A stretch of 64,000 nucleotides of DNA, from the IMG/VR virus record IMGVR_UViG_3300026522_000021; one strand, written 5' to 3'. Positions 4,859-29,898 of the stretch are shown here, one piece after another. Position numbers and translations under genes: made by a program. Below the pieces are notes generated by a model. The model was given only the letters and a program-made list of their open reading frames with translations. It was not told the origin of the DNA and ran no database searches. The stretch is from a virus (taxonomy: Duplodnaviria > Caudoviricetes). Position 1 is the first letter of the stretch. Each line of letters begins with the position of its first letter.

Positions 4859-5806
4859 TTATTCTCTATACTCCCAGTTTTTGTTAACGATATGATGACC
4901 GTCATAGCTGAAATCATCAAAATACTTTCGTACCTGAGCTATAAAGAGTACAGATCGACAACACTTGTATTCTTTGTTCTCTAAGAAACAGTAATATGCA
5001 AGCAATGTATCCCAAAATAATGCATCATTATTTTCGAGTTTAGCAAGACCGTATTTTCGAATATTGAAATATACATAAATAAAAAGTTTCCTGATTCCAA
5101 ATTCCTTACCATCTTCAATCATATTGTTTCGGCAATCATGTAAAGCAAGTTGAGCATTACGAATATCTTTTAACGTTACTTTCCCTGTATCATAAGCAAC
5201 ATATGATGCTGCGAGAAAACTTGAACAGTAGGCTAAAGAAGTTCCCGGATAATAATTTTGCAGAATAATTTCTCTACAAAACTCGCCGAATGTATCTATT
5301 TTTTCTTTGATAAATTCAATACAACTATCCATATCATCCGCGCCATAGCTCATATAATTAAGAAGCCTTTTAATAACCATTATTATTCTTTTGTCGCATA
5401 AAACTTCAAACATACTTCTCATCGAGTCATCAACGAAAGTTTCTTTTTTATGGTTAAAAATAACCTCTGATTTGATAGGTTTATTGACACTGATGCAATC
5501 ATAAAGTTTTTCAATGTTATCAACCACATCTCCATTACGAGTTAATACAATAGGATTTTGATTATACTTAGCGGCGTTATCAACTTTATGATATTCACCA
5601 TAATTTCTACGTTTTCGAAGAATCTTTCGTGCATCATCTGGATAAATTGTACATTCCATTATTGCTATATTGTCGTGTCGAATGCTTTTTAAAATTTCAA
5701 TTATTTTATCAAATGATATTTCTGTTACAAATTCATTATTGATAGTTACTGTGTTAATTCCTGTATCCATAAATTTCTCCTTTAGCCGTATAGTCCGATA
5801 CTTCAT
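4859..5806 (-). CDS. Hypothetical protein
   Basis: 315-aa ORF, no motif recognised. Confidence 0.55.
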   Translation of the reverse strand: MKYRTIRLKEKFMDTGINTVTINNEFVTEISFDKIIEILKSIRHDNIAIMECTIYPDDARKILRKRRNYGEYHKVDNAAKYNQNPIVLTRNGDVVDNIEKLYDCISVNKPIKSEVIFNHKKETFVDDSMRSMFEVLCDKRIIMVIKRLLNYMSYGADDMDSCIEFIKEKIDTFGEFCREIILQNYYPGTSLAYCSSFLAASYVAYDTGKVTLKDIRNAQLALHDCRNNMIEDGKEFGIRKLFIYVYFNIRKYGLAKLENNDALFWDTLLAYYCFLENKEYKCCRSVLFIAQVRKYFDDFSYDGHHIVNKNWEYRE

Positions 5807-6096
5807 CTAAAAAAATATTATTATAGAATATATATAAATCGGAAATCATTTGATTTTACACTTGCGTAACCGAATTATATTTTATATAAACGGTTTTCTT
5901 GCTTCTATCATAAATTTATTTGGGACTACACCACATGCCTTCATCCACTTTTCTACTTCTTCGCAGACCATTAAATGTTTTTCATATTCGGCTATGTTAC
6001 TGTCTTTTGACATAATAACTTTGTTATGATGCTCGCCGTATGATTCTAATAGCTCATTCATATCTTCATCTGAAATCTTCCATCCATAATTATATT

Positions 6097-6897
6097 TCAT
6101 TTAATTACCTCGCTATGGTTTTTGATCTTTGAACAAATTTTCTGCAACGCTTCTTTGTTTGACATATAAAATGGATCTTCTCCAAGCATCGCAACGATTG
6201 ACTGACCAAATCTCATCATTGGATATTGGCTATGATAATCCATTAACGCCTGAAGTATATCATCATAATCATCAGCTTCTTTTGTATCACGAGTGTACTT
6301 TGCTTTCGGATCGTAATGATCTACGATGTATTGCAACGTTCTCGGTGCATAATCAATGTACGGATACATGCATCCAACATTATAAATCTCACAAGGAAAT
6401 CCCTGACGATTTAACATAGCGGTTAATCGTCTTTCCATCTCGCTCTCGGCTGAATTGTGCGAATGACCGTGAAGCATTATGGCGTTTCTGTAATGATGGT
6501 TGTAAAACGGCATATAATAATGCGATAAAATTACTCTTTTATTAGCGCCATTTACTTCATCATTGACTTCTTTATACGGTACAACTTCTTCAAATAGCTT
6601 TTTAAAACGGTCATTTACGAACTTATCGTGATTACCAAGAATAAGATGTTTATTGCCATTAAGATTGTTTAATAATTCTTTGTAATAATCTAAATTCTGA
6701 TTATTTACCTTCCAACAAATGTCTCCAAGCACATAGATATGATCCGCATTAGTTACAGCTGCGTTCCATTTTCTTGTTATAGCCTCGTGCATTTCATCTA
6801 AATTTTTGAAACCACGATTATCAAAATCTTTTCCTGCTTTTGTTACATTGATATGCCCTAAGTGCAAATCTGAAATATATAATTTACGTTCTGCCAT
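6097..6897 (-). CDS. Calcineurin-like metallophosphoesterase
   Basis: SDLHLGH, LGD, GNHD, HGHSH motifs. Confidence 0.9.
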   Translation of the reverse strand: MAERKLYISDLHLGHINVTKAGKDFDNRGFKNLDEMHEAITRKWNAAVTNADHIYVLGDICWKVNNQNLDYYKELLNNLNGNKHLILGNHDKFVNDRFKKLFEEVVPYKEVNDEVNGANKRVILSHYYMPFYNHHYRNAIMLHGHSHNSAESEMERRLTAMLNRQGFPCEIYNVGCMYPYIDYAPRTLQYIVDHYDPKAKYTRDTKEADDYDDILQALMDYHSQYPMMRFGQSIVAMLGEDPFYMSNKEALQKICSKIKNHSEVIK

Positions 6898-8063: not shown

Positions 8064-8819
8064 TTATGCTATACGAATTATTTGTTCATACAAGCAAATA
8101 AATTTCCCCATAACTTGTTCATTTCTATGCAGATGCGCGAAGAACCATTTCGTAAATTTTAATCCATCCCATAACAATTCATTGAAATACCATGTCAATT
8201 TATCTCTGTCTGTAAATCCCATGACAGACTGTACTTCTTGAGGCGCACAATGGCTAATCACAAAATCAACTTCATTGTTTACAGCCTTTAAAGATTGTCG
8301 CCCACGTTCCATCTCTTCATCATTCGGCATTTCTTGATCCCACCATGATACGCCCCTGACACGAAACATCTTTCCGTACTTCTGCCATCTCCTATATGTA
8401 TCTCTAAAGTCATCCATGTCTACGAAATCATTAGGGTCTAAAATTCCATCTTGAATATCGTGCGAGCTTGCGCCTCCAAAGGCAAAGAATTTTTTATCGC
8501 ATATATCAAACACGTAACCGCGCATTAAATGATAAATATTATCCCTGATTTTGTGCGCTTTACCACCGTGGAAATCAACAATAGGATACGTGTAAAGCAA
8601 ATCGAAATTCTCATGATTTCCATCAACGAACAGCGTTGTAAACGGTTTATTATTCAGCCAATCAAGCCAATACTTTTCATCTTTTGAGTTAGACCATACC
8701 AGACCAAAGTCACCTAAGATAATAACGAAATCATCACGCGTCATTTCTTTCTGTTCTGGAAAACTATCTACGCTAAATCGGCGTGGATCTCCATGAATGT
8801 CACCTGTGCAATAAATCAT
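8064..8819 (-). CDS. Calcineurin-like metallophosphoesterase
   Basis: GDIHG, GDFG, GNHE, AHLH motifs. Confidence 0.9.
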   Translation of the reverse strand: MIYCTGDIHGDPRRFSVDSFPEQKEMTRDDFVIILGDFGLVWSNSKDEKYWLDWLNNKPFTTLFVDGNHENFDLLYTYPIVDFHGGKAHKIRDNIYHLMRGYVFDICDKKFFAFGGASSHDIQDGILDPNDFVDMDDFRDTYRRWQKYGKMFRVRGVSWWDQEMPNDEEMERGRQSLKAVNNEVDFVISHCAPQEVQSVMGFTDRDKLTWYFNELLWDGLKFTKWFFAHLHRNEQVMGKFICLYEQIIRIA

Positions 8820-9445
8820 TCGTCATACCTCTCTAACTTTTGTTCTTTGGTTTTCAAAATGAAATCCCTGTATTCTTCATAGTCCTTGAACTTGATGTAT
8901 TCACCATTGATTACATCGAAACAATTTTCATTTCTGGCAAATTCATATGCGTTTGCGCTGATAACAAAGTAAATGTCTTTATTCTTTTCTGTTTCTATAA
9001 CCAATGGAATAAGACTTTCTTTTATATCAATCACATTGTCAATACTTAATCCGCTGTCAATAGCATCAAACAAGAACCATAGTTCTTTAGCATCTGGATT
9101 TTCCTGCGACATGCGCCCCATTTTTCTGGCTATATCTTCAAGAACGTTTACAATGTTTTCGCCTTCGCTACTCATCATTGTTCTTGCTACGATATCAAAA
9201 TTTCCCCAAAATGCAGCCTTACTTCTTAACTCTCTCTCGCCGTCATGCATATTGCTATGAAACAGCACAGGAATATCTTTGTTTTTCAAACTTTGATTTA
9301 TTTGATTGAGAAGTGTAGTCTTTCCTGCGCCATTACATCCAACAAGAACAGTTAGCCCTGTATTTATTTTGATTTGCTTCTTCTTAAAGATTGCAAACCC
9401 ATCATCACCATACCAATCATTTGATAATCTGAATTGTCTGCTCAT
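8816..9445 (-). CDS. ABC/AAA-type ATPase
   Basis: Walker A GCNGAGKTT, SSEGE signature-like, FLFDAID Walker B. Confidence 0.8.
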   Translation of the reverse strand: MSRQFRLSNDWYGDDGFAIFKKKQIKINTGLTVLVGCNGAGKTTLLNQINQSLKNKDIPVLFHSNMHDGERELRSKAAFWGNFDIVARTMMSSEGENIVNVLEDIARKMGRMSQENPDAKELWFLFDAIDSGLSIDNVIDIKESLIPLVIETEKNKDIYFVISANAYEFARNENCFDVINGEYIKFKDYEEYRDFILKTKEQKLERYDE

Positions 9446-9897
9446 ACTAACATTCCATCAAGAATACTACTTACAAGTTTACCATCGGCTTTGCCTTTGA
9501 CTTTAGGCATAAGCTCTTTCATAATGATGCCTTTACTTTTCTTTGTTGCTGGATTATCAGAAGTAAAGCCAAGAGACAACATGACATCTTCAATAACGGC
9601 TCTGATCTGTGTTTCATCCATCAATTCAGGAGCAAACTTCTTTAGTGTTTCTATCCTTCTCTTGCATTGCTCGATAATATCCGTCCTATCTTCTGGACAC
9701 ATATCTAATGTTTCCTGCGTCTGACGGATTTCTTTATAAACAACTTCATTCTCTTCATCTTCTGTAAGCTCACGTTGTTTATCAATCTCTGCATTCTTTA
9801 ACGCAGAAAGAAGCAATGAAAGCGTATCTTTTGTTTCTTGATCGCGAGCCTTCATTGCATCAACCATGCACATTCTTACATAATCTTCTTTCTTCAT
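9442..9897 (-). CDS. GatB/YqeY domain protein
   Basis: AMKARD..LKNAEIDK..KGIIMKELMPKVKGKADGK. Confidence 0.85.
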   Translation of the reverse strand: MKKEDYVRMCMVDAMKARDQETKDTLSLLLSALKNAEIDKQRELTEDEENEVVYKEIRQTQETLDMCPEDRTDIIEQCKRRIETLKKFAPELMDETQIRAVIEDVMLSLGFTSDNPATKKSKGIIMKELMPKVKGKADGKLVSSILDGMLV

Positions 9898-10748: not shown

Positions 10749-10839
10749 AAGGCGCATTTGTTGTTTGGTGTCCTTGTCGGACAAATACGATAACCCTAAT
10801 CATCAGCTTGTAAACATTTGAAATTGCTGTATGCGCCTT
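10749..10839 (-). ncRNA. ACAGCAA-motif RNA 1 (terminal-stem type)
   Basis: AAGGCGCAT/ATGCGCCTT stem, ACAGCAA after the 5' strand, internal hairpins. Confidence 0.7.
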
Positions 10840-11368: not shown

Positions 11369-11449
11369 TGCGATGATTTGGATTCGAACCAATACCTCGC
11401 CCACGTTTCCCATGTCTACAGGCGTATGCTACCTTTTACAACACACCGC
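11369..11449 (-). ncRNA. tRNA-like RNA with expanded anticodon arm
   Basis: GCGGTG/CATCGC acceptor, GGTTCGAATCC T-arm; CGCC/GGCG stem encloses TGTAGA plus a CATG-GGAAA-CGTG hairpin. Confidence 0.6.
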
Positions 11450-11824: not shown

Positions 11825-11952
11825 CAGCGAGGACAGGACTCGAACCTGTAACCTACGGCTTCCTGAATGCGTAACGTTAAAATTGCTGCGCGTATCTAAT
11901 ACAAGATACGTTGTTTGTTTTTACGTTGCTCTGCCAGTTGAGCTACCTCGCT
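11825..11952 (-). ncRNA. ACAGCAA-motif RNA 2 (tRNA-scaffold chimera)
   Basis: AGCGAGG acceptor, canonical D- and T-arms; insert hairpin CGTATCT/AGATACG followed by CGCAGCAA. Confidence 0.8.
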
Positions 11953-12022
11953 GATGTTGTGGATGTGGCAATGGAAAACCAAGGCAAGAACCCACATCCA
12001 CTAATATGAGTGTTCTGAAAAC

Positions 12023-12088
12023 TAAGCGCATATAAAACTTTATCAATGACTGTCAGAAAAAGATTTTATAGTTTGCTGTTCGCGCTTA
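12023..12088 (-). ncRNA. ACAGCAA-motif RNA 3 (terminal-stem type)
   Basis: TAAGCGC-GA-ACAGCAA...GCGCTTA; directly downstream of the DUF2828 gene. Confidence 0.7.
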
Positions 12089-12098
12089 AATCTATGAT

Positions 12099-13598
12099 TT
12101 ACAGTAATCCTTCTACGGCTTCTCTTACTTTCGCGTAGCGTTCTCCATTCAGCGTTTCAAGAAGAACTTTGTAAGGATCAACCTGATTGCTCATGAACAT
12201 CTTCAGGATTTGAACCGAAAATCCACTGCAAAGAATAAGCCCCATATCATTCTGTTGCATCGGGATTGTTCCATTCAAGCGACCGCTTAAATTCCAGAAA
12301 CAAATCTTCGGAAGTTTATATCCTGCGTCCTCGAATTCCTGTGCGATTTCATCAAACAGGCTCTTGTTGAGATTGTGTGAACGACCGTCAAACTGCATGT
12401 CGGAACAAATCACGATCATCTTCGGCATATCTTCCGCAGAAGTATGATTTCTCTTTGCTGTTTTCAGGATCAGCATCATAGTCTTATAGATGTTCGTGTT
12501 TGAACAATCGGATTCGCGCAAGGAAAGATCAACTTTATCTGCAAGCGAATCGCAATTTGACAGATCGACAATCTTCGGATTGGATGAGAAGGTAATAAAC
12601 TTATCTTTCCAATCGCCTGTATTGTGTTCTGACATGTAAATTGCAAGTGCGGTTGCTACATCTAAAGGTGTACCACTTCCTGCAAAACTTCCCCATGTCA
12701 TAGAACCAGAACCATCACGAACAATCAGTGTGTTCTCTACAGACAGATCAGGAAGTGCCTTCCACAGCGCTTCGAGCGTTGCATCTTTTCTGCATCTATT
12801 CTGGCGATACTTCAGGCAGATCTCATGCGGATTAAGCGTGCTTGCGTTAATCTTTGCAGTGCCTTTTTCAAGCGATGCAAGATATTCGCGTCTACGATCC
12901 TCATCATTCCGTAAGAATGCGCTATTGTAGATCAGATTAGCTTTAGAAGGCACAGTTTCATAATTGATCTTATCCCATTTCTTAGCACTCATTTTGACCT
13001 CTACAACATCAAGATACTTTCTAAGTTTGGATAAAGTCTTTCTGTACTTCTTCTCTGTCCATCCAAGTTCACGGCAGATTGTTTTAGCTCTGTCAACTGT
13101 TATCTTGGATGATGCATTGACGCTCGGCATCCACTTCGCACACAGAGAAATCGACTTGCCTTCCTTCATGTTGGCTTTATCTTCTTTCAGCTGCGCCTTG
13201 ATTAAAGCGATTGCCTTTCCTCTCGTTCTTTCATCGTCAAGCATAACCATGACGCTATCCCAACGATTATAGAATGGGATAAGATCAATGATAGCCTTTG
13301 CGATCTTCGGCTGTTTTTCTGCAAGATAGCTCAGTCCAGCTCTGAAAGCTTTTCTCTCACCAAGTCCTTCACGGACATCGCCAAGATAGAAAAGATATTC
13401 AAGCGCTGTCAGCTTATCCTCAAAGAAAACTTTCATGAAATCTTCTTTGATCGCTTCAGGAAATCTGTTACGCATAGCAGATACTCCAAAGTTGAAATCA
13501 AGAAGTTTCTTTCCTGCTGTTGCATAGGCGATCGCGCCGTTTGTGGTTACTGATTTGCGAGTGTTCAATTCATTTTGCATTTCATCGAAGAAACTCAT
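12099..13598 (-). CDS. DUF2828-family TROVE/Ro60-like protein with C-terminal vWA domain
   Basis: TTNGAIAY, DVREGLGER, SLCAKWMPS; MIDAS RDGSGSM; SDMQFD; FWNL. Confidence 0.85.
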   Translation of the reverse strand: MSFFDEMQNELNTRKSVTTNGAIAYATAGKKLLDFNFGVSAMRNRFPEAIKEDFMKVFFEDKLTALEYLFYLGDVREGLGERKAFRAGLSYLAEKQPKIAKAIIDLIPFYNRWDSVMVMLDDERTRGKAIALIKAQLKEDKANMKEGKSISLCAKWMPSVNASSKITVDRAKTICRELGWTEKKYRKTLSKLRKYLDVVEVKMSAKKWDKINYETVPSKANLIYNSAFLRNDEDRRREYLASLEKGTAKINASTLNPHEICLKYRQNRCRKDATLEALWKALPDLSVENTLIVRDGSGSMTWGSFAGSGTPLDVATALAIYMSEHNTGDWKDKFITFSSNPKIVDLSNCDSLADKVDLSLRESDCSNTNIYKTMMLILKTAKRNHTSAEDMPKMIVICSDMQFDGRSHNLNKSLFDEIAQEFEDAGYKLPKICFWNLSGRLNGTIPMQQNDMGLILCSGFSVQILKMFMSNQVDPYKVLLETLNGERYAKVREAVEGLL

Positions 13599-13639
13599 AA
13601 TTGCTTTACCTCTCTTTTCTTAATTTGTGGTTGCAATTC

Positions 13640-13704
13640 AAGGCACTGGTTGTGGTTGTAAGATTAAAAGTCTTATCCATAATAGTGGTTGCTGTATGTG
13701 CCTT
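13640..13704 (-). ncRNA. ACAGCAA-motif RNA 4 displaying a Lys(UUU) anticodon stem-loop
   Basis: AAGGCAC-AT-ACAGCAA...TAAGA-CTTTTAA-TCTTA...GTGCCTT. Confidence 0.8.
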
Positions 13705-13712
13705 AAATGTAT

Positions 13713-13830
13713 AGCGCACGATTGGATTCGAACCAATGACAAATTCTTCTGTGTATTAAGTTGCTGATTGCGATTATCGCTAACCGCGTTTAACAAATTA
13801 AAACTGCACTACCAACTGTGCTACGTGCGC
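13713..13830 (-). ncRNA. ACAGCAA-motif RNA 5 (tRNA-scaffold chimera, no anticodon loop)
   Basis: GCGCACG acceptor, D- and T-arms; insert GCGGTTA-GCGA-TAATCGC-AA-TCAGCAA. Confidence 0.8.
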
Positions 13831-13846
13831 CATCCCTTTCGGGAAA

Positions 13847-14002
13847 CAGCAGTGACAGGAATCGAACCTGTGCTTGCAGCTTGACCAAGTAAACTTGCTG
13901 TGTGTTCCTTTAATTCCCCGACTCTAACTCGTCTATGCGGTTACTCTCGGTGGTAACAAGAAACATTTATATGCTGCCGTGTTCCCACTTCACTACACTG
14001 CC
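13847..14002 (-). ncRNA. ACAGCAA-motif RNA 6 (tRNA-scaffold chimera, large insert)
   Basis: GGCAGTG/CACTGCT acceptor; GCAGC/GCTGC stem encloses a TGTTTCTT/AAGGAACA helix followed by CACAGCAA; GGTTCGATTCC. Confidence 0.8.
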
Positions 14003-14005
14003 GCG

Positions 14006-14130
14006 CCCATCGTGAAGGATTCGAACCTTCCCCTCAAGTTTTGCAGACTTGTAATTGATATATAACTTTGCTGTAGGTGTTTACACTAAACACACAATCA
14101 AAAGATATGCTACCTCTACACCAACGATGG
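14006..14130 (-). ncRNA. ACAGCAA-motif RNA 7 (tRNA chimera retaining a Cys(GCA) anticodon arm)
   Basis: CCATCGT acceptor; insert GTGTTTA-GTG-TAAACAC-CT-ACAGCAA; then CAAGT-CTGCAAA-ACTTG; T-arm. Confidence 0.8.
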
Positions 14131-14148
14131 GATATTCAATTTTTAAAC

Positions 14149-14212
14149 AAGACGCTATGATGGTAATATAAGTTAACAGCTTATTCCTTCATATAATTGC
14201 TGTATGCGTCTT
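14149..14212 (-). ncRNA. ACAGCAA-motif RNA 8 displaying an Asn(GUU) anticodon stem-loop
   Basis: AAGACGC-AT-ACAGCAA...ATAAG-CTGTTAA-CTTAT...GCGTCTT. Confidence 0.8.
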
Positions 14213-14225
14213 TCAGTTTTAACAC

Positions 14226-14315
14226 AAGGCACTTTATTTTGATGGACTTGAACCATCTCGCAAAGACTTTGAATGTTTTTACTTTAACCGATGTTAAGTT
14301 TGCTGTATGTGCCTT
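14226..14315 (-). ncRNA. ACAGCAA-motif RNA 9 (motif stem in place of acceptor stem; D-, anticodon- and T-like arms)
   Basis: AAGGCAC-AT-ACAGCAA, ACTT-AACATCGGTTA-AAGT, AAAAC-ATTCAAA-GTCTT, GATGG-TTCAAGT-CCATC, GTGCCTT. Confidence 0.75.
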
Positions 14316-14336
14316 TCTTGTTATCTTGCAATACCT

Positions 14337-14365
14337 ATTATAGCATATCGTTCTCGGCTTTGCAA
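14337..14365 (-). promoter_or_regulatory. sigmaA promoter driving the ACAGCAA-RNA/DUF2828 operon
   Basis: TTGCAA-17-TATAAT with extended TG; about 20 nt upstream of RNA 9. Confidence 0.8.
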
Positions 14366-14478
14366 GTATTATTTTGAATTATTTTTAATGTAGTTTTGAT
14401 TTCTCGCGATCACTACAAGCGCACAGTTTCTTACTTTTTATGATGTTAGTTTAGAACTGCAAAAGCAACCATTCATCG

Positions 14479-14551
14479 TGCGCCAGATGGGACTCGAACC
14501 CATGACTTTTCGATTAAAAGTCGAATACTCTACCATCTGAGTTACTGGCGC
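14479..14551 (-). tRNA. tRNA-Lys(TTT)
   Basis: GCGCCAG stem, TTCGA-CTTTTAA-TCGAA, GGTTCGAGTCC. Confidence 0.93.
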
Positions 14552-19623: not shown

Positions 19624-20442
19624 CTATTCACCGATATAAACCAACTTGTCTATGTATTCTCTATCTTCTCCTGCAAAAATCGGTATATTATCATCGGCAA
19701 CCCAATCAGAGCCACAGTATTTTACACAACTTCCTCGTTTCATAACGGTAGGATAATCATCCCAATTTACACCTTTTTCTTTGAGTAACATTTCCTTTAT
19801 TTCATTGCAACTCTTATTCTGAAGTTGTTTCTGCGTGAAGCATGATTGCCCAAGCATTTGTATACTATTTCTTATTGCATCAAGCTGTCTCCAATAGAAA
19901 TAATTTGTCACTTCTTCTTTTGTAAGATTAAAACATCTGGAGTCGAACATTGCGCCCCTTATTTTGGCTTTATAATAGACTTCATGTTGCTTCAATATTT
20001 TTCTTTCGTTATCTGATAAACGTCTATTTGTTCCACCTTCATCCCAATCTTCAATATTTTCTCTTCCAAACATATCAATGTTTGCCTCAAAATTTCTATT
20101 GAATATAAGAGTTGCTATAGAAGCTGTTACGCTACATACCTTTTGCACTTCATAGCCAAAGAACGCTTCAGTGTTTAATGATTTATAATCAATCAGCAAC
20201 AAAGAAATCTCATCGGATTGATGATAACCAAGAACGCATCCCTGAATGTTCACGCATAAATACTTCATCGTATCTTGCATAGTTTTTATCAATAAAGAAT
20301 CAAACGGCTTTTCAAAACATCTTGTAAAAGTATGAAATGCTTTTCCGTCAATGCGTATAATAACTGGCATCCTTCTTATTAAAGAGTTTTTTGGAACGCT
20401 CTCATACGTTTTCATCCTCTTTGCCAAATCGCTATTATCCAT
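19624..20442 (-). CDS. Thg1-like tRNA(His) guanylyltransferase / 3'-5' polymerase
   Basis: IRIDGKAFHTFT, YHQSDEISL, FDSR, WRQLDAIRNS. Confidence 0.92.
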   Translation of the reverse strand: MDNSDLAKRMKTYESVPKNSLIRRMPVIIRIDGKAFHTFTRCFEKPFDSLLIKTMQDTMKYLCVNIQGCVLGYHQSDEISLLLIDYKSLNTEAFFGYEVQKVCSVTASIATLIFNRNFEANIDMFGRENIEDWDEGGTNRRLSDNERKILKQHEVYYKAKIRGAMFDSRCFNLTKEEVTNYFYWRQLDAIRNSIQMLGQSCFTQKQLQNKSCNEIKEMLLKEKGVNWDDYPTVMKRGSCVKYCGSDWVADDNIPIFAGEDREYIDKLVYIGE

Positions 20443-27706: not shown

Positions 27707-28857
27707 TTACATGTCTACTTCTTCAGGCTCGTTCATGAAGTCAGAAGAAACATCCTCATGTTTTTCAATATCGGATTTTTCTGCTTCTTCAACGCCATCA
27801 TCTTCATGTTCATCGGATGCCTCGATATCCACATCATCGAAGAACCGATCCCATACCTTTTCGATCTCATCATGTCTGCGCTTGATATTCGCGTTCTTTG
27901 CAGAACCACCCTTGCAAGCATCGGAGTAAGCATCGGACACGATCACGCCATTTCCGAAAAGTTCTACCATGAAATCGCCCATCAGCTTATCAGAAATCTC
28001 ATCATCAATAGCCTGTTTGATCCACGGAACAAGCGAGATCATATGCGTTTCAGAAACCATTTTCTTTCTAACAGCCTTCGCAACCTTCGCATTGTCGTAC
28101 TCCTCAAGCACATTATAGATTGCGTAAATCTTATCCAGAACAGAAACGACCTCATCGCGCTCGGCATCGCTCATCTTCGTTTCCTGCATCACTTCGTTGA
28201 AAGTTCTGCTTTCAAAAGATACATCATCAATGTCCTCGTTCAGCATCATCCATACCTTCATGATGATCGGGAGCTGCTTTCTGGTTGCAAGCGCCTTTTC
28301 GGTCATGGTGTTCTGGAAAAGCTCATGCTTTCCAATATCAGAAACGGTGATGATGTCAACACAGTTAGCAATGTTGCGCTCTTTAGTGGAAAGGGGCTTT
28401 CCATTGTTCAGCTTCGCGAACAGCATCCGAACCTGTTCAGGAGTGATATCCTCGTAATAGTAGATCGTCAGGTGATAATCCTTGATTGCATCCTGAATCT
28501 CTTCGGGAAGGTCTTTAAAGTATTTCCCTTCAAGCCATTCCGTCTGCTCATTGCCCTCTGCATCAGTATATGTAATCTCAGGAACGCCAATCAGGTAATA
28601 CTCGTTCTCGATGAAGCCACGAATAGCATTGATGCGCTGCTTTCCATCAAGGAAATCATATGTTCTTCCGTCAACCTTCTTTGCGTAAAATGGCGGTACA
28701 GGATATCCTTCAATCAGGGAATGAATCAGGTTACTCTTCCTTGTCTGTTCCCATACATAGGATCTCTGGATGATATTGTCGAAACTGAATGTTCCGTTTC
28801 CTGCCATTTTCGCGATCTGCTTACAACTCCATGTAATGTTTGCTTTGTTAAGTGCCA
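27707..28857 (-). CDS. DUF262 (GmrSD/ParB-like) domain protein
   Basis: IQRSYVW, LIHSLIEGYPVP, LDGKQR, FAKLNNGKPL; start placed at MALNKA after GGAGG. Confidence 0.85.
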
Positions 28858-28974
28858 TTTCTTTATCCTCCTTTGTTTGATTTGCTTTGTGTTCTTTGTT
28901 TACTACCTCTCTATGTGAACATGTTACCACATAAAGAGGTAGATGTCAACTATTATTTTGAATTATTTTTTAAT

Positions 28975-29898
28975 TTATTTAATCAAGCTGTCAACCAATC
29001 CCATGATATCATTGATTGCTTCGATATGGACAGATGCTTCAGTCGCGTTTGCGTTTCTCTGTCCTTCAGAATAAGCCATTGCGATTATGTCTCGCAGATC
29101 GGAAACCTCGATGCTGATAACTGGCTTGTCAGAAACTTCTTTATATTCTTTATCACCTGTCACATAGTCATCAAAGAAACCGCCCATATCATCATAATAC
29201 TGATTGACTTTTTCTTTGGTTAATCCGATATAATGTTTAGTAGTTTTTGTATCGGAGTGATTGTAGATCGTCTGCAACAATTCCATGCTGTCATAATCAT
29301 TCGGATGGATCATTCTGGAGATCATACCGAAAGTTTTTCTTGTGCTATGCGTCCCAACATTATAGGTAATTCCGATAACATCTGCTGCTTTCTTCAGCGC
29401 CTTGCGATAACCATCGCTGGTGATGACTGTTCCTCTATGCGTCCCTGTCAGCTGCATGAACACGTATTCGTGATAGCCATTCTTCTCAGGTTTTACACCA
29501 GTCTTTTCAATGTACTTTTCAATAGCTTTTTTACAAGCGCTATTGATACGAGGATTCGCAAGCTTGTCTGTTTTATCCTCTACAATCTCAAGGATCTCAT
29601 CTCTGATTTTCCCTGTCTGCGGATTGTAAAGATGCTCCCATGTAAGATTGAGTGTATCGCCAACGCGCCTCGCCATGTTGCATCCTAAGATGAAGAGCAG
29701 ATAGTGAAGCCACATCTCATTCTCTTCAAAGTATTCGATCATCTTCTTCATATCTTCCAACTGGAACGGATATACTTCAGACTTGCGACCTTTCTTTTTA
29801 TTATTGGCTTTTTTCTCCTGACGAGGGAATTCAATGATGCTCGAATACCCTGTTCTTTCTTCCGTATCATTCCAGATATTCAATGCTCTGACTGCCAT
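28975..29898 (-). CDS. Tyrosine recombinase (YopP-like)
   Basis: ARRVGDTLNL, HSTRKTFG, NHS..TKHYIG. Confidence 0.9.
   Translation of the reverse strand: MAVRALNIWNDTEERTGYSSIIEFPRQEKKANNKKKGRKSEVYPFQLEDMKKMIEYFEENEMWLHYLLFILGCNMARRVGDTLNLTWEHLYNPQTGKIRDEILEIVEDKTDKLANPRINSACKKAIEKYIEKTGVKPEKNGYHEYVFMQLTGTHRGTVITSDGYRKALKKAADVIGITYNVGTHSTRKTFGMISRMIHPNDYDSMELLQTIYNHSDTKTTKHYIGLTKEKVNQYYDDMGGFFDDYVTGDKEYKEVSDKPVISIEVSDLRDIIAMAYSEGQRNANATEASVHIEAINDIMGLVDSLIK

Follow-up and report, generated by a model that had tools for sequence, protein, structure and literature searches.

A stretch of 64,000 nucleotides (nt) of the IMG/VR virus record IMGVR_UViG_3300026522_000021 (Duplodnaviria; Caudoviricetes), in the following called the window, encodes on its minus strand two small RNAs, RNA4 and RNA8, the cargo of which is a faithful mimic of a transfer RNA (tRNA) anticodon arm including the isoacceptor-specific letters 32, 33, 37 and 38. 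Judged by sequence and predicted fold, both are members of a family of small phage RNAs that is not yet catalogued and is defined by a common handle, in which the 5' strand of a closing helix of 6-9 base pairs (bp) is followed, after 0-3 nt, by the motif ACAGCAA. RNA4 ends 38 nt upstream of the start codon of a gene for a DUF2828 protein with a predicted Ro60-like fold. A preliminary description of positions 13640-14315 had proposed the RNAs as decoys for anticodon nucleases; partner RNAs of the Ro60-like protein is a more apt description of them than free decoys. The best explanation overall, if with a probability somewhat short of even, would be a particle that resembles Ro60 with its Y RNA and, by this analogy, presents anticodon loops as bait.

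Bare anticodon arms on a common handle

RNA4 and RNA8 are built alike from a closing helix of 7 bp, AUACAGCAA and a single hairpin, with the handle reading helix-AU-ACAGCAA in both (Table 1). The minimum-energy fold consists in each case of the closing helix and the arm hairpin (z -2.25 for RNA4 and -2.58 for RNA8), and the hairpins possess what characterizes a tRNA anticodon arm, namely a 5-bp stem, a 7-nt loop, U33 and a purine at position 37. The loop of RNA4, within an arm that reads U36-A37-A38-U39-C40, is identical to the loop of the phage's own tRNA-Lys(UUU), the stem of which is different and G/C-richer, while the loop of RNA8 is identical to the tRNA-Asn loop of related phages. D, T and acceptor parts are absent from both RNAs, and neither ARAGORN nor the Rfam tRNA model, even at E-values up to 10, gives a match to them.

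The arm sequences quoted for RNA4, RNA7 and RNA8 in the preliminary description were all recovered on the minus strand with a 5-bp stem and a 7-nt loop, and the canonical tRNA-Lys(UUU) announced nearby was confirmed by ARAGORN and Rfam. Its statement that the arms come without other tRNA parts holds for RNA4 and RNA8, which have no tRNA match, and had to be given up for RNA7, which has a complete tRNA-like body. Equally, the display of a UCA anticodon considered for RNA9 is abandoned, as the arm is mismatched and the 7-nt loop is not kept; the loop length drifts in the orthologues (5, 7, 8 or 13 nt) and the UCA reading is therefore unsupported.

Nine minus-strand elements of the window share a helix followed by (A)UACAGCAA. 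Five of them (RNA1, 3, 4, 8 and 9) are closed by the handle helix, and the other four (RNA2, 5, 6 and 7) are tRNA bodies with a hairpin and the same box inserted at the anticodon arm. The cargo of RNA3, a long hairpin with a 17-nt loop, is not anticodon-like. In RNA7 the inserted handle module, a hairpin plus CUACAGCAA, separates the D arm from the anticodon arm, and the displayed triplet is GCA in the window and in the related lineages L087 and L088, ACA in L083-85 and GGA in L086 and L089; RNA7 is unlikely to decode as a tRNA because its anticodon changes between close relatives on an unchanged arm. A weak tRNA-like element on the minus strand at 11369-11449 (Rfam tRNA 20.8 bits; acceptor and T arms, large insert) shows a GUACAGAUG box in the place of ACAGCAA and is possibly a tenth, diverged member of the handle family.

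Table 1. Handle RNAs, the adjoining protein gene and associated features of the window
Feature	Position	Strand	Description	Evidence
RNA1	10749-10839	-	handle RNA, complex cargo	z -3.36
RNA2	11825-11953	-	tRNA body with handle insert	Rfam, ARAGORN
RNA3	12023-12088	-	handle RNA just downstream of the DUF2828 gene	fold
DUF2828 gene	12099-13598	-	DUF2828 + DUF7788/vWA protein, 499 amino acids (aa)	Pfam; PHROG 850 "RNA-binding protein"
RNA4	13640-13704	-	handle RNA, 7-bp closing helix + AUACAGCAA, bare Lys-type anticodon arm	fold, orthologues
RNA4 anticodon-arm mimic	13659-13675	-	5-bp stem, loop CUUUUAA	flanks GG-A ... CAA-CC
RNA5	13713-13830	-	tRNA body, handle module at the anticodon-arm position	Rfam tRNA 47.4 bits, 56-nt insert; ARAGORN
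RNA6	13847-14002	-	tRNA body, 90-nt handle-bearing insert in the anticodon loop	Rfam tRNA 46.4 bits
RNA7	14006-14130	-	tRNA-like body (acceptor, weak D arm, T arm)	fold, Rfam
RNA7 anticodon arm	14035-14051	-	5-bp stem, loop CUGCAAA (Cys-type), not bare	sequence
RNA8	14149-14212	-	handle RNA, bare Asn-type arm tipping a long interrupted hairpin	fold, orthologues
RNA8 anticodon-arm mimic	14168-14184	-	perfect 5-bp stem, loop CUGUUAA	sequence
RNA9	14226-14315	-	handle-closed cloverleaf with D-like hairpin	Rfam tRNA positions 9-63, 23 bits; z -3.61
RNA9 T arm	14241-14257	-		fold
RNA9 imperfect arm	14260-14282	-	A.C mismatch, loop AUUCAAA	fold
Promoter-like site	14337-14365	-	TTGCAA, 17-nt spacer, TATAAT, extended TG	just upstream of RNA9
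tRNA-Lys(UUU)	14478-14551	-	canonical tRNA	ARAGORN; Rfam 75.4 bits

The handle was followed through 82 loci comprising 80 IMG/VR contigs that encode relatives, one Enterococcus phage and the window; the relatives were gathered by an alignment-based scan of viral contigs, a single-protein scan having given none. In these loci ACAGCAA occurs 509 times on the gene strand versus 38 times on the opposite strand, and copies closed by a helix, concentrated within 500 nt of the ends of the DUF2828 gene, number 251 on the gene strand versus 4 on the opposite strand. The motif is invariant in the alignments A2 and A3, and the closing helix is formed by three to six pair types per position among 51 unique RNAs. 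For 16 homologues from outside the window, the RNAalifold consensus comprises both the closing helix and the 5-bp arm, with compensatory changes in all nine predicted pairs; in the MAFFT alignments the 5' handle and the arm aligned well and the 3' strands were ragged, the support for the helix coming from anchored counts and from RNAalifold. The handle adjoins the DUF2828 gene also in Enterococcus phage VRE9_2, the Felix O1-like phage HY02, mycobacteriophage LeBron and Listeria phage LP-064, and Bacillus phages possess it as well. Rfam searches, at the gathering threshold and at permissive E-values, returned only tRNA, transfer-messenger RNA (tmRNA), sub-threshold YrlA and noise, and full-text literature searches on DUF2828, on phage decoy and anticodon-nuclease RNAs and on Ro60-type phage systems turned up no account of the handle RNAs. 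With these observations, the existence of the handle family and its pairing with the DUF2828 protein in a ribonucleoprotein are considered very likely.

The named phages add further forms to the family. In VRE9_2 (L001, 3830-3960) a miniature tRNA-like element, which has acceptor, D and T arms and lacks an anticodon arm, is directly followed by a handle RNA just upstream of DUF2828, and in Escherichia phage HY02 (L082, 5700-6400) four handle RNAs (helix plus UACAGCAA or UUCAGCAA), none of them with an anticodon arm, are located within the group of 22 tRNA genes that closely follows the DUF2828 gene. Three handle RNAs directly follow the gene of the 'Ro-like' gp53 in Mycobacterium phage LeBron (L092, 3950-4230), the middle one possessing a T arm and then a D arm, which is the permuted order of YrlA, with no match to the YrlA model. 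In Listeria phage LP-064 (L093, 2150-2420) three handle RNAs are found upstream of DUF2828, and a gene for an RtcB-like RNA ligase (5349-6515) lies 1.3 kb downstream of it.

The density of anticodon-arm hairpins in the handle RNAs is not a matter of chance. On both strands of the window nine 5-bp hairpins with a CU-NNN-AA loop are present, four of them in canonical tRNAs and three in RNA4, RNA7 and RNA8, where a first-order Markov null gives 3.25 +/- 1.7 per window and about 0.02 in the 676-nt stretch of the preliminary description. The hairpin at 58494-58510 (CUUUGAA), which lies inside an open reading frame (ORF), was rejected as a mimic and taken as a chance occurrence. Throughout the 82 loci, 65 such hairpins are found in 11.3 kb of handle-RNA interior versus 40 in 884 kb outside, an about 127-fold higher density, and among the predicted hairpins 7-nt loops predominate (74/208). 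Canonical tRNAs of the loci share their triplet with 39 distinct mimic loops, 29 of which are identical to the canonical loop in all seven letters, and this identity includes the proline-type group UUUGGGU (Pro-UGG), in which G37 is the purine that follows G36 in real tRNAs. The loops are thus kept as anticodon loops in homologous arrays, the opposite of which the preliminary description had set beforehand as the observation to speak against decoys.

The location in a tRNA cluster and the inclusion of whole tRNA bodies with inserts in the family could suggest that the arms are decayed remnants of tRNA genes without a function of their own, with only the handle being of relevance. The mimic stems, however, are generic, A/U-rich and unlike canonical tRNA stems, and the exact seven-letter loops are therefore maintained on a common scaffold and not recent copies of tRNA genes. 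Together with the 127-fold enrichment, the compensatory stem changes, a recurrent and conserved clamp around the arm (GG-A ... 3-4 nt ... CC) and the conservation of the RNA4 arm across lineages of 73-84 % protein identity, which are the nearest relatives of the phage, this leaves the remnant explanation highly improbable. That anticodon-arm mimicry is under selection can be held with considerable confidence.

Exchange and choice of the displayed triplet

The RNA4 arm is kept in all of the seven related lineages (7/7). Its triplet is UUU in the window and in five of the seven (L083-86, L088, L089), GUU in L090/91 and Pro-type in L087, where positions 32, 35, 36 and 37 changed together to give the proline-type loop UUUGGGA. 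The RNA8 orthologues of L086 and L089 keep GUU, in L089 with a compensatory 31-39 change. In closely related pairs of the mini-RNAs the triplet had changed at 7 of 30 sites versus 26 of 564 sites elsewhere (odds ratio 6.3, p = 7e-4; small sample), that is, it changes about six times faster than the rest of the RNA. In the sequences compared, close relatives have exchanged the triplet and retained the scaffold, as expected of a specificity element, and this fast and isoacceptor-exact switching argues therefore for a partner of the module that reads specific anticodon loops.

With lineages defined at 90 % protein identity (n = 42), Lys-UUU is the anticodon most displayed (17/42), and the others are Asn-GUU (7-9 lineages), Ser-UGA (6), Ser-GCU (5-6), Pro-UGG (4), Thr-UGU (2-4) and Tyr-GUA (2). 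Of the Lys, Asn and Tyr bias for which the preliminary description had suggested to tabulate homologous arrays, lysine in first and asparagine in second place were borne out, while tyrosine is rare. Leucine anticodons are hardly ever displayed, even though Leu-UAA is the most frequent of the canonical phage tRNAs here. The Lys/Asn bias fits the idea of a nuclease decoy without proving it.

Position 36 is never C among the displays, which was considered as a sign that certain position-37 modification classes are mimicked and was discarded, being inseparable from the low C content. Anticodon classes ending in U, A or G with the matching purine at position 37 carry bulky modifications at this position. 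Nearly every displayed anticodon has U, A or G as its last letter and the matching purine after it at position 37, and the loops reproduce positions 32, 33, 37 and 38 exactly, including G37 after G36; furthermore, YrlA is a substrate of tRNA modification enzymes (PMC4201824). The RNAs might accordingly be seen as bait for other host proteins that read the anticodon loop, such as position 34/37 modification enzymes or aminoacyl-tRNA synthetases, by which host translation would be retuned or the mimic itself be modified. Such a role is improbable, as the missing C36 may merely reflect the low C content, a benefit for the phage is not evident and rapid triplet switching is less expected with housekeeping enzymes as partners.

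A predicted Ro60-like protein in a tRNA cluster

The DUF2828 protein is predicted to fold like Ro60: for a structure model built on 33 homologues (mean predicted local distance difference test score 73), all of the top 12 PDB matches are Ro60 structures (Xenopus, human, Deinococcus and Thermus phage phiLo), with E-values of 2.6e-8 to 2.6e-5 and template modelling (TM) scores of about 0.46-0.49. DUF2828 proteins are encoded in 711 phage records, and the protein of the window is presumed to be the protein partner of the handle.

Its ORF is surrounded by tRNA genes (Leu, Met, Leu, Lys, Trp, Gln) and a tmRNA gene, recognized by ARAGORN and Rfam, which form a cluster on the minus strand at 10.4-15.3 kb of the window; nine tRNAs and a tmRNA are encoded in the window as a whole. 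RNA9 through RNA4 and the DUF2828 gene probably form one transcript, because a promoter-like site precedes RNA9 and no minus-strand terminator-like site was found between it (14365) and the gene. The promoter-like site is a consensus match only, the number of such matches not being above that in shuffled controls.

In 38 of the 42 lineages the start codon of DUF2828 is preceded, at a distance of 17-60 nt, by the end of a handle RNA, and in 28 of these the RNA has an anticodon-type loop. A conserved string, CUUG-(A/U/G)-AUUGC, is found 3' of the RNA4 closing helix at 13599-13640 and in the orthologues, 20-40 nt before the DUF2828 ribosome-binding site, and may be a processing or regulatory signal. 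Together with the lack of a terminator-like site up to the gene, these features would suit a cis-acting leader, in which the RNA4 handle serves autoregulation, processing or stabilization of the DUF2828 mRNA, or a cleavage sensor that couples nuclease attack to expression. On the other hand, RNAs of the same kind are located also downstream of the gene and, at kilobase distance, in the midst of tRNAs (RNA8; position 5442 in L087), and a leader leaves the exact mimicry of different tRNA loops unexplained. As the sole explanation a leader has little probability; a leader role and a bait-presenting particle are not mutually exclusive.

Other proteins of the window include a Thg1-like enzyme, a YqeY protein, two metallophosphoesterases, a beta-CASP RNase and an RdRP-family polymerase, a gene set that therefore indicates a large phage equipped for tRNA maintenance. 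At 8064-9897 on the minus strand, downstream of the RNA cluster, three successive genes encode the YqeY-like protein, a P-loop protein of 209 aa and a metallophosphoesterase, an order kept in L083-L089, and the Thg1-like gene (19624-20442, minus strand) is found 6 kb upstream; these genes may constitute an end-healing or tRNA-repair set. The RNAs could belong to a particle for tRNA damage repair or quality control, the ring of which captures broken or misfolded tRNAs while tRNA-like cargos recruit or gate repair and processing enzymes, as proposed for the bacterial Rsr-YrlA-RtcB. The predicted Ro60-like fold, the Thg1-like, YqeY and two phosphoesterase genes, the RtcB gene 1.3 kb from DUF2828 in LP-064, a phosphoesterase gene adjoining DUF2828 in the Enterococcus phage and cargos that span all degrees of tRNA completeness are in favour of it, and a jumbo-phage Ro60 with its tRNA-like partner has been viewed as an RNA-repair platform (PMC7824862). 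However, a general adaptor gives no reason for fast, isoacceptor-exact triplet switching, an RNA ligase gene was not found in the window and many cargos are not tRNA-like at all. A repair particle is therefore considered rather unlikely, though of the alternatives to bait it is the one to be taken most seriously.

Two side observations on the window stand apart from these considerations. An ORF of 927 aa (53136-55919, plus strand) matches the RdRP family PF05183 (E 2e-7), as do the single-subunit RNA polymerases of some large phages, and a gene with a GmrSD N-terminal domain adjoins a phage integrase-family gene (27707-29898, minus strand) inside the phage. The sample names of the nearest relatives suggest an origin in rumen studies.

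Proposed role and comparison with known systems

Cleavage of tRNA is a major route of bacterial immunity, represented by PrrC, PARIS, retron and OLD nucleases and Schlafen-like enzymes, and replacement tRNAs and repair enzymes are the known phage answers, with T4 Pnk/Rnl1 acting against PrrC. In Ro60 systems the Y RNA tethers the ring to another protein (PMC4201824, PMC12135203). By analogy, the handle would dock on the Ro60-like ring, and the anticodon arm would be the effector module engaging a protein that reads a particular anticodon loop. The most likely targets would be tRNA-cleaving defence nucleases of the PrrC, AriB or OLD kind, which are the most plausible partners because of the Lys/Asn bias, the tRNA-maintenance context and the activity of gp130, a Ro60-like protein of the Felix O1-type phage Bas63, against the ppl defence system (PhageMaP preprint, PMC11482910). 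The particle might titrate, block or hold such nucleases while the phage tRNAs and tRNA-maintenance genes sustain translation. This role against nucleases is possible, if doubtful. In its boldest form, a ring with interchangeable handle RNAs, each neutralizing the nuclease that reads its anticodon, could be a programmable bait, the triplet being rewritten by point mutation as host defences change; this has to be regarded as speculative and on balance not probable.

AriB, the effector of PARIS, cuts exactly Lys-UUU, Thr-UGU and Asn-GUU, reads U36-A-A-U-C, cuts after C40 and contacts also the D loop (U16/U17) (PMC12409363). The recognition string is present in RNA4, RNA8 has C39 in place of U39, and neither RNA has a D loop. 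Several observations weigh against nuclease bait, beginning with the D-loop contacts that AriB needs and that a bare arm does not offer, and the missing U39 of RNA8. The RNA8 arm is lost in the closest relatives L083-85 and also in L087. Ser-UGA, Ser-GCU and Pro-UGG are common displays, for which we know of no matching nuclease in such a setting, and in part U-rich triplets are to be anticipated from the A/T richness of the genome. Furthermore, the lineage counts and the comparisons of related pairs are not phylogenetically independent. Many members, RNA1, RNA3 and most of the Felix O1, LeBron and Listeria copies, have a non-anticodon cargo, and anticodon display is therefore one option of the handle family and not its essence.

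If true, a particle presenting bare anticodon arms would constitute a third and easily re-targeted phage answer to tRNA cleavage, an RNA-based and sequence-addressable anti-defence system. It would also provide a first concrete function for the very widespread phage Ro60-like DUF2828 proteins and indicate that adaptors of the Y RNA type can bear a sequence-specific "address". Should the nuclease idea be wrong, the RNAs are still a clean case of modular RNA evolution, combining one handle with many tRNA-derived cargos in a family that is absent from Rfam.

A functional parallel is the tRNA-based escape of phages from anticodon nucleases, as described for tRNA-Lys/Thr/Asn variants of T5 and AriB (PMC11464382, PMC12409363), with Lys-UUU, Asn-GUU and Thr-UGU being among the anticodons most displayed here. 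Like such phages, the phage of the window encodes a canonical tRNA-Lys and tRNA-maintenance enzymes. Unlike the answers of T5 and T4, in which the tRNA is replaced or repaired, the handle RNAs are not open to aminoacylation and would have to serve as bait or inhibitor; a phage RNA decoy of this kind was not described in the literature searched on decoys and anticodon nucleases.

Among DUF2828-family members, gp130 of Bas63 is the only one with a known phenotype, and it is presumably the counterpart of the HY02 homologue, with which it was matched by genus and gene position. In Felix O1-type phages the DUF2828 homologue (34 % identity) is encoded directly upstream of the tRNA array that holds the four handle RNAs, the cargos of which, unlike those of RNA4 and RNA8, are not anticodon arms.

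In design, the handle RNAs resemble the dictyostelid Class I RNAs (RF01414, PMC7919456) of 42-65 nt, which have a short covarying stem joining the ends, a conserved unpaired 11-nt motif beside the 5' strand and a variable remainder. The invariant C6, C9, A10 and A11 of Class I RNAs fit ...ACAGCAA, which amounts to four of the five invariant positions named (PMC7919456). Over 13599-14330, Rfam at E-values up to 10 gave only tRNA and weak noise and no match to Class I (RF01414). Different from the handle RNAs, Class I RNAs have an RRM protein as partner and their organisms are eukaryotes.

A close resemblance exists to Ro60 and its Y RNAs, as known for YrlA (RF02553, PMC4201824) and for Yrl1/Yrl2 of phage phiLo (PMC12135203). 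Common to both are a protein with a vWA domain, the Ro60-like ring fold being predicted here, several small RNA genes that directly adjoin the protein gene on the same strand, and an occurrence in phages with many tRNA genes. As in Y RNA, a stem closed by the 5' and 3' ends for (here putative) protein binding is combined with a variable tRNA-mimicking module, which is an arm in RNA4 and RNA8, a cloverleaf in RNA9 and a whole tRNA-like body in RNA2 and RNA5-7. The Rfam YrlA model reaches 20.5 bits in the window against a gathering threshold of 69, with a match that straddles two different RNAs, and gives no match at the gathering threshold in the LeBron, Listeria, Felix O1-like and Enterococcus loci. 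Unlike Ro60, the protein is recognized by Pfam as DUF2828/DUF7788/VWA_2 and not as TROVE, and the signature of its RNAs is a helix plus ACAGCAA in place of the GNCGAA or CGAA of Y RNA. Finally, YrlA mimics the D arm, T arm and acceptor stem of a tRNA, whereas the cargo of the handle RNAs may be a bare anticodon arm with a switching triplet.

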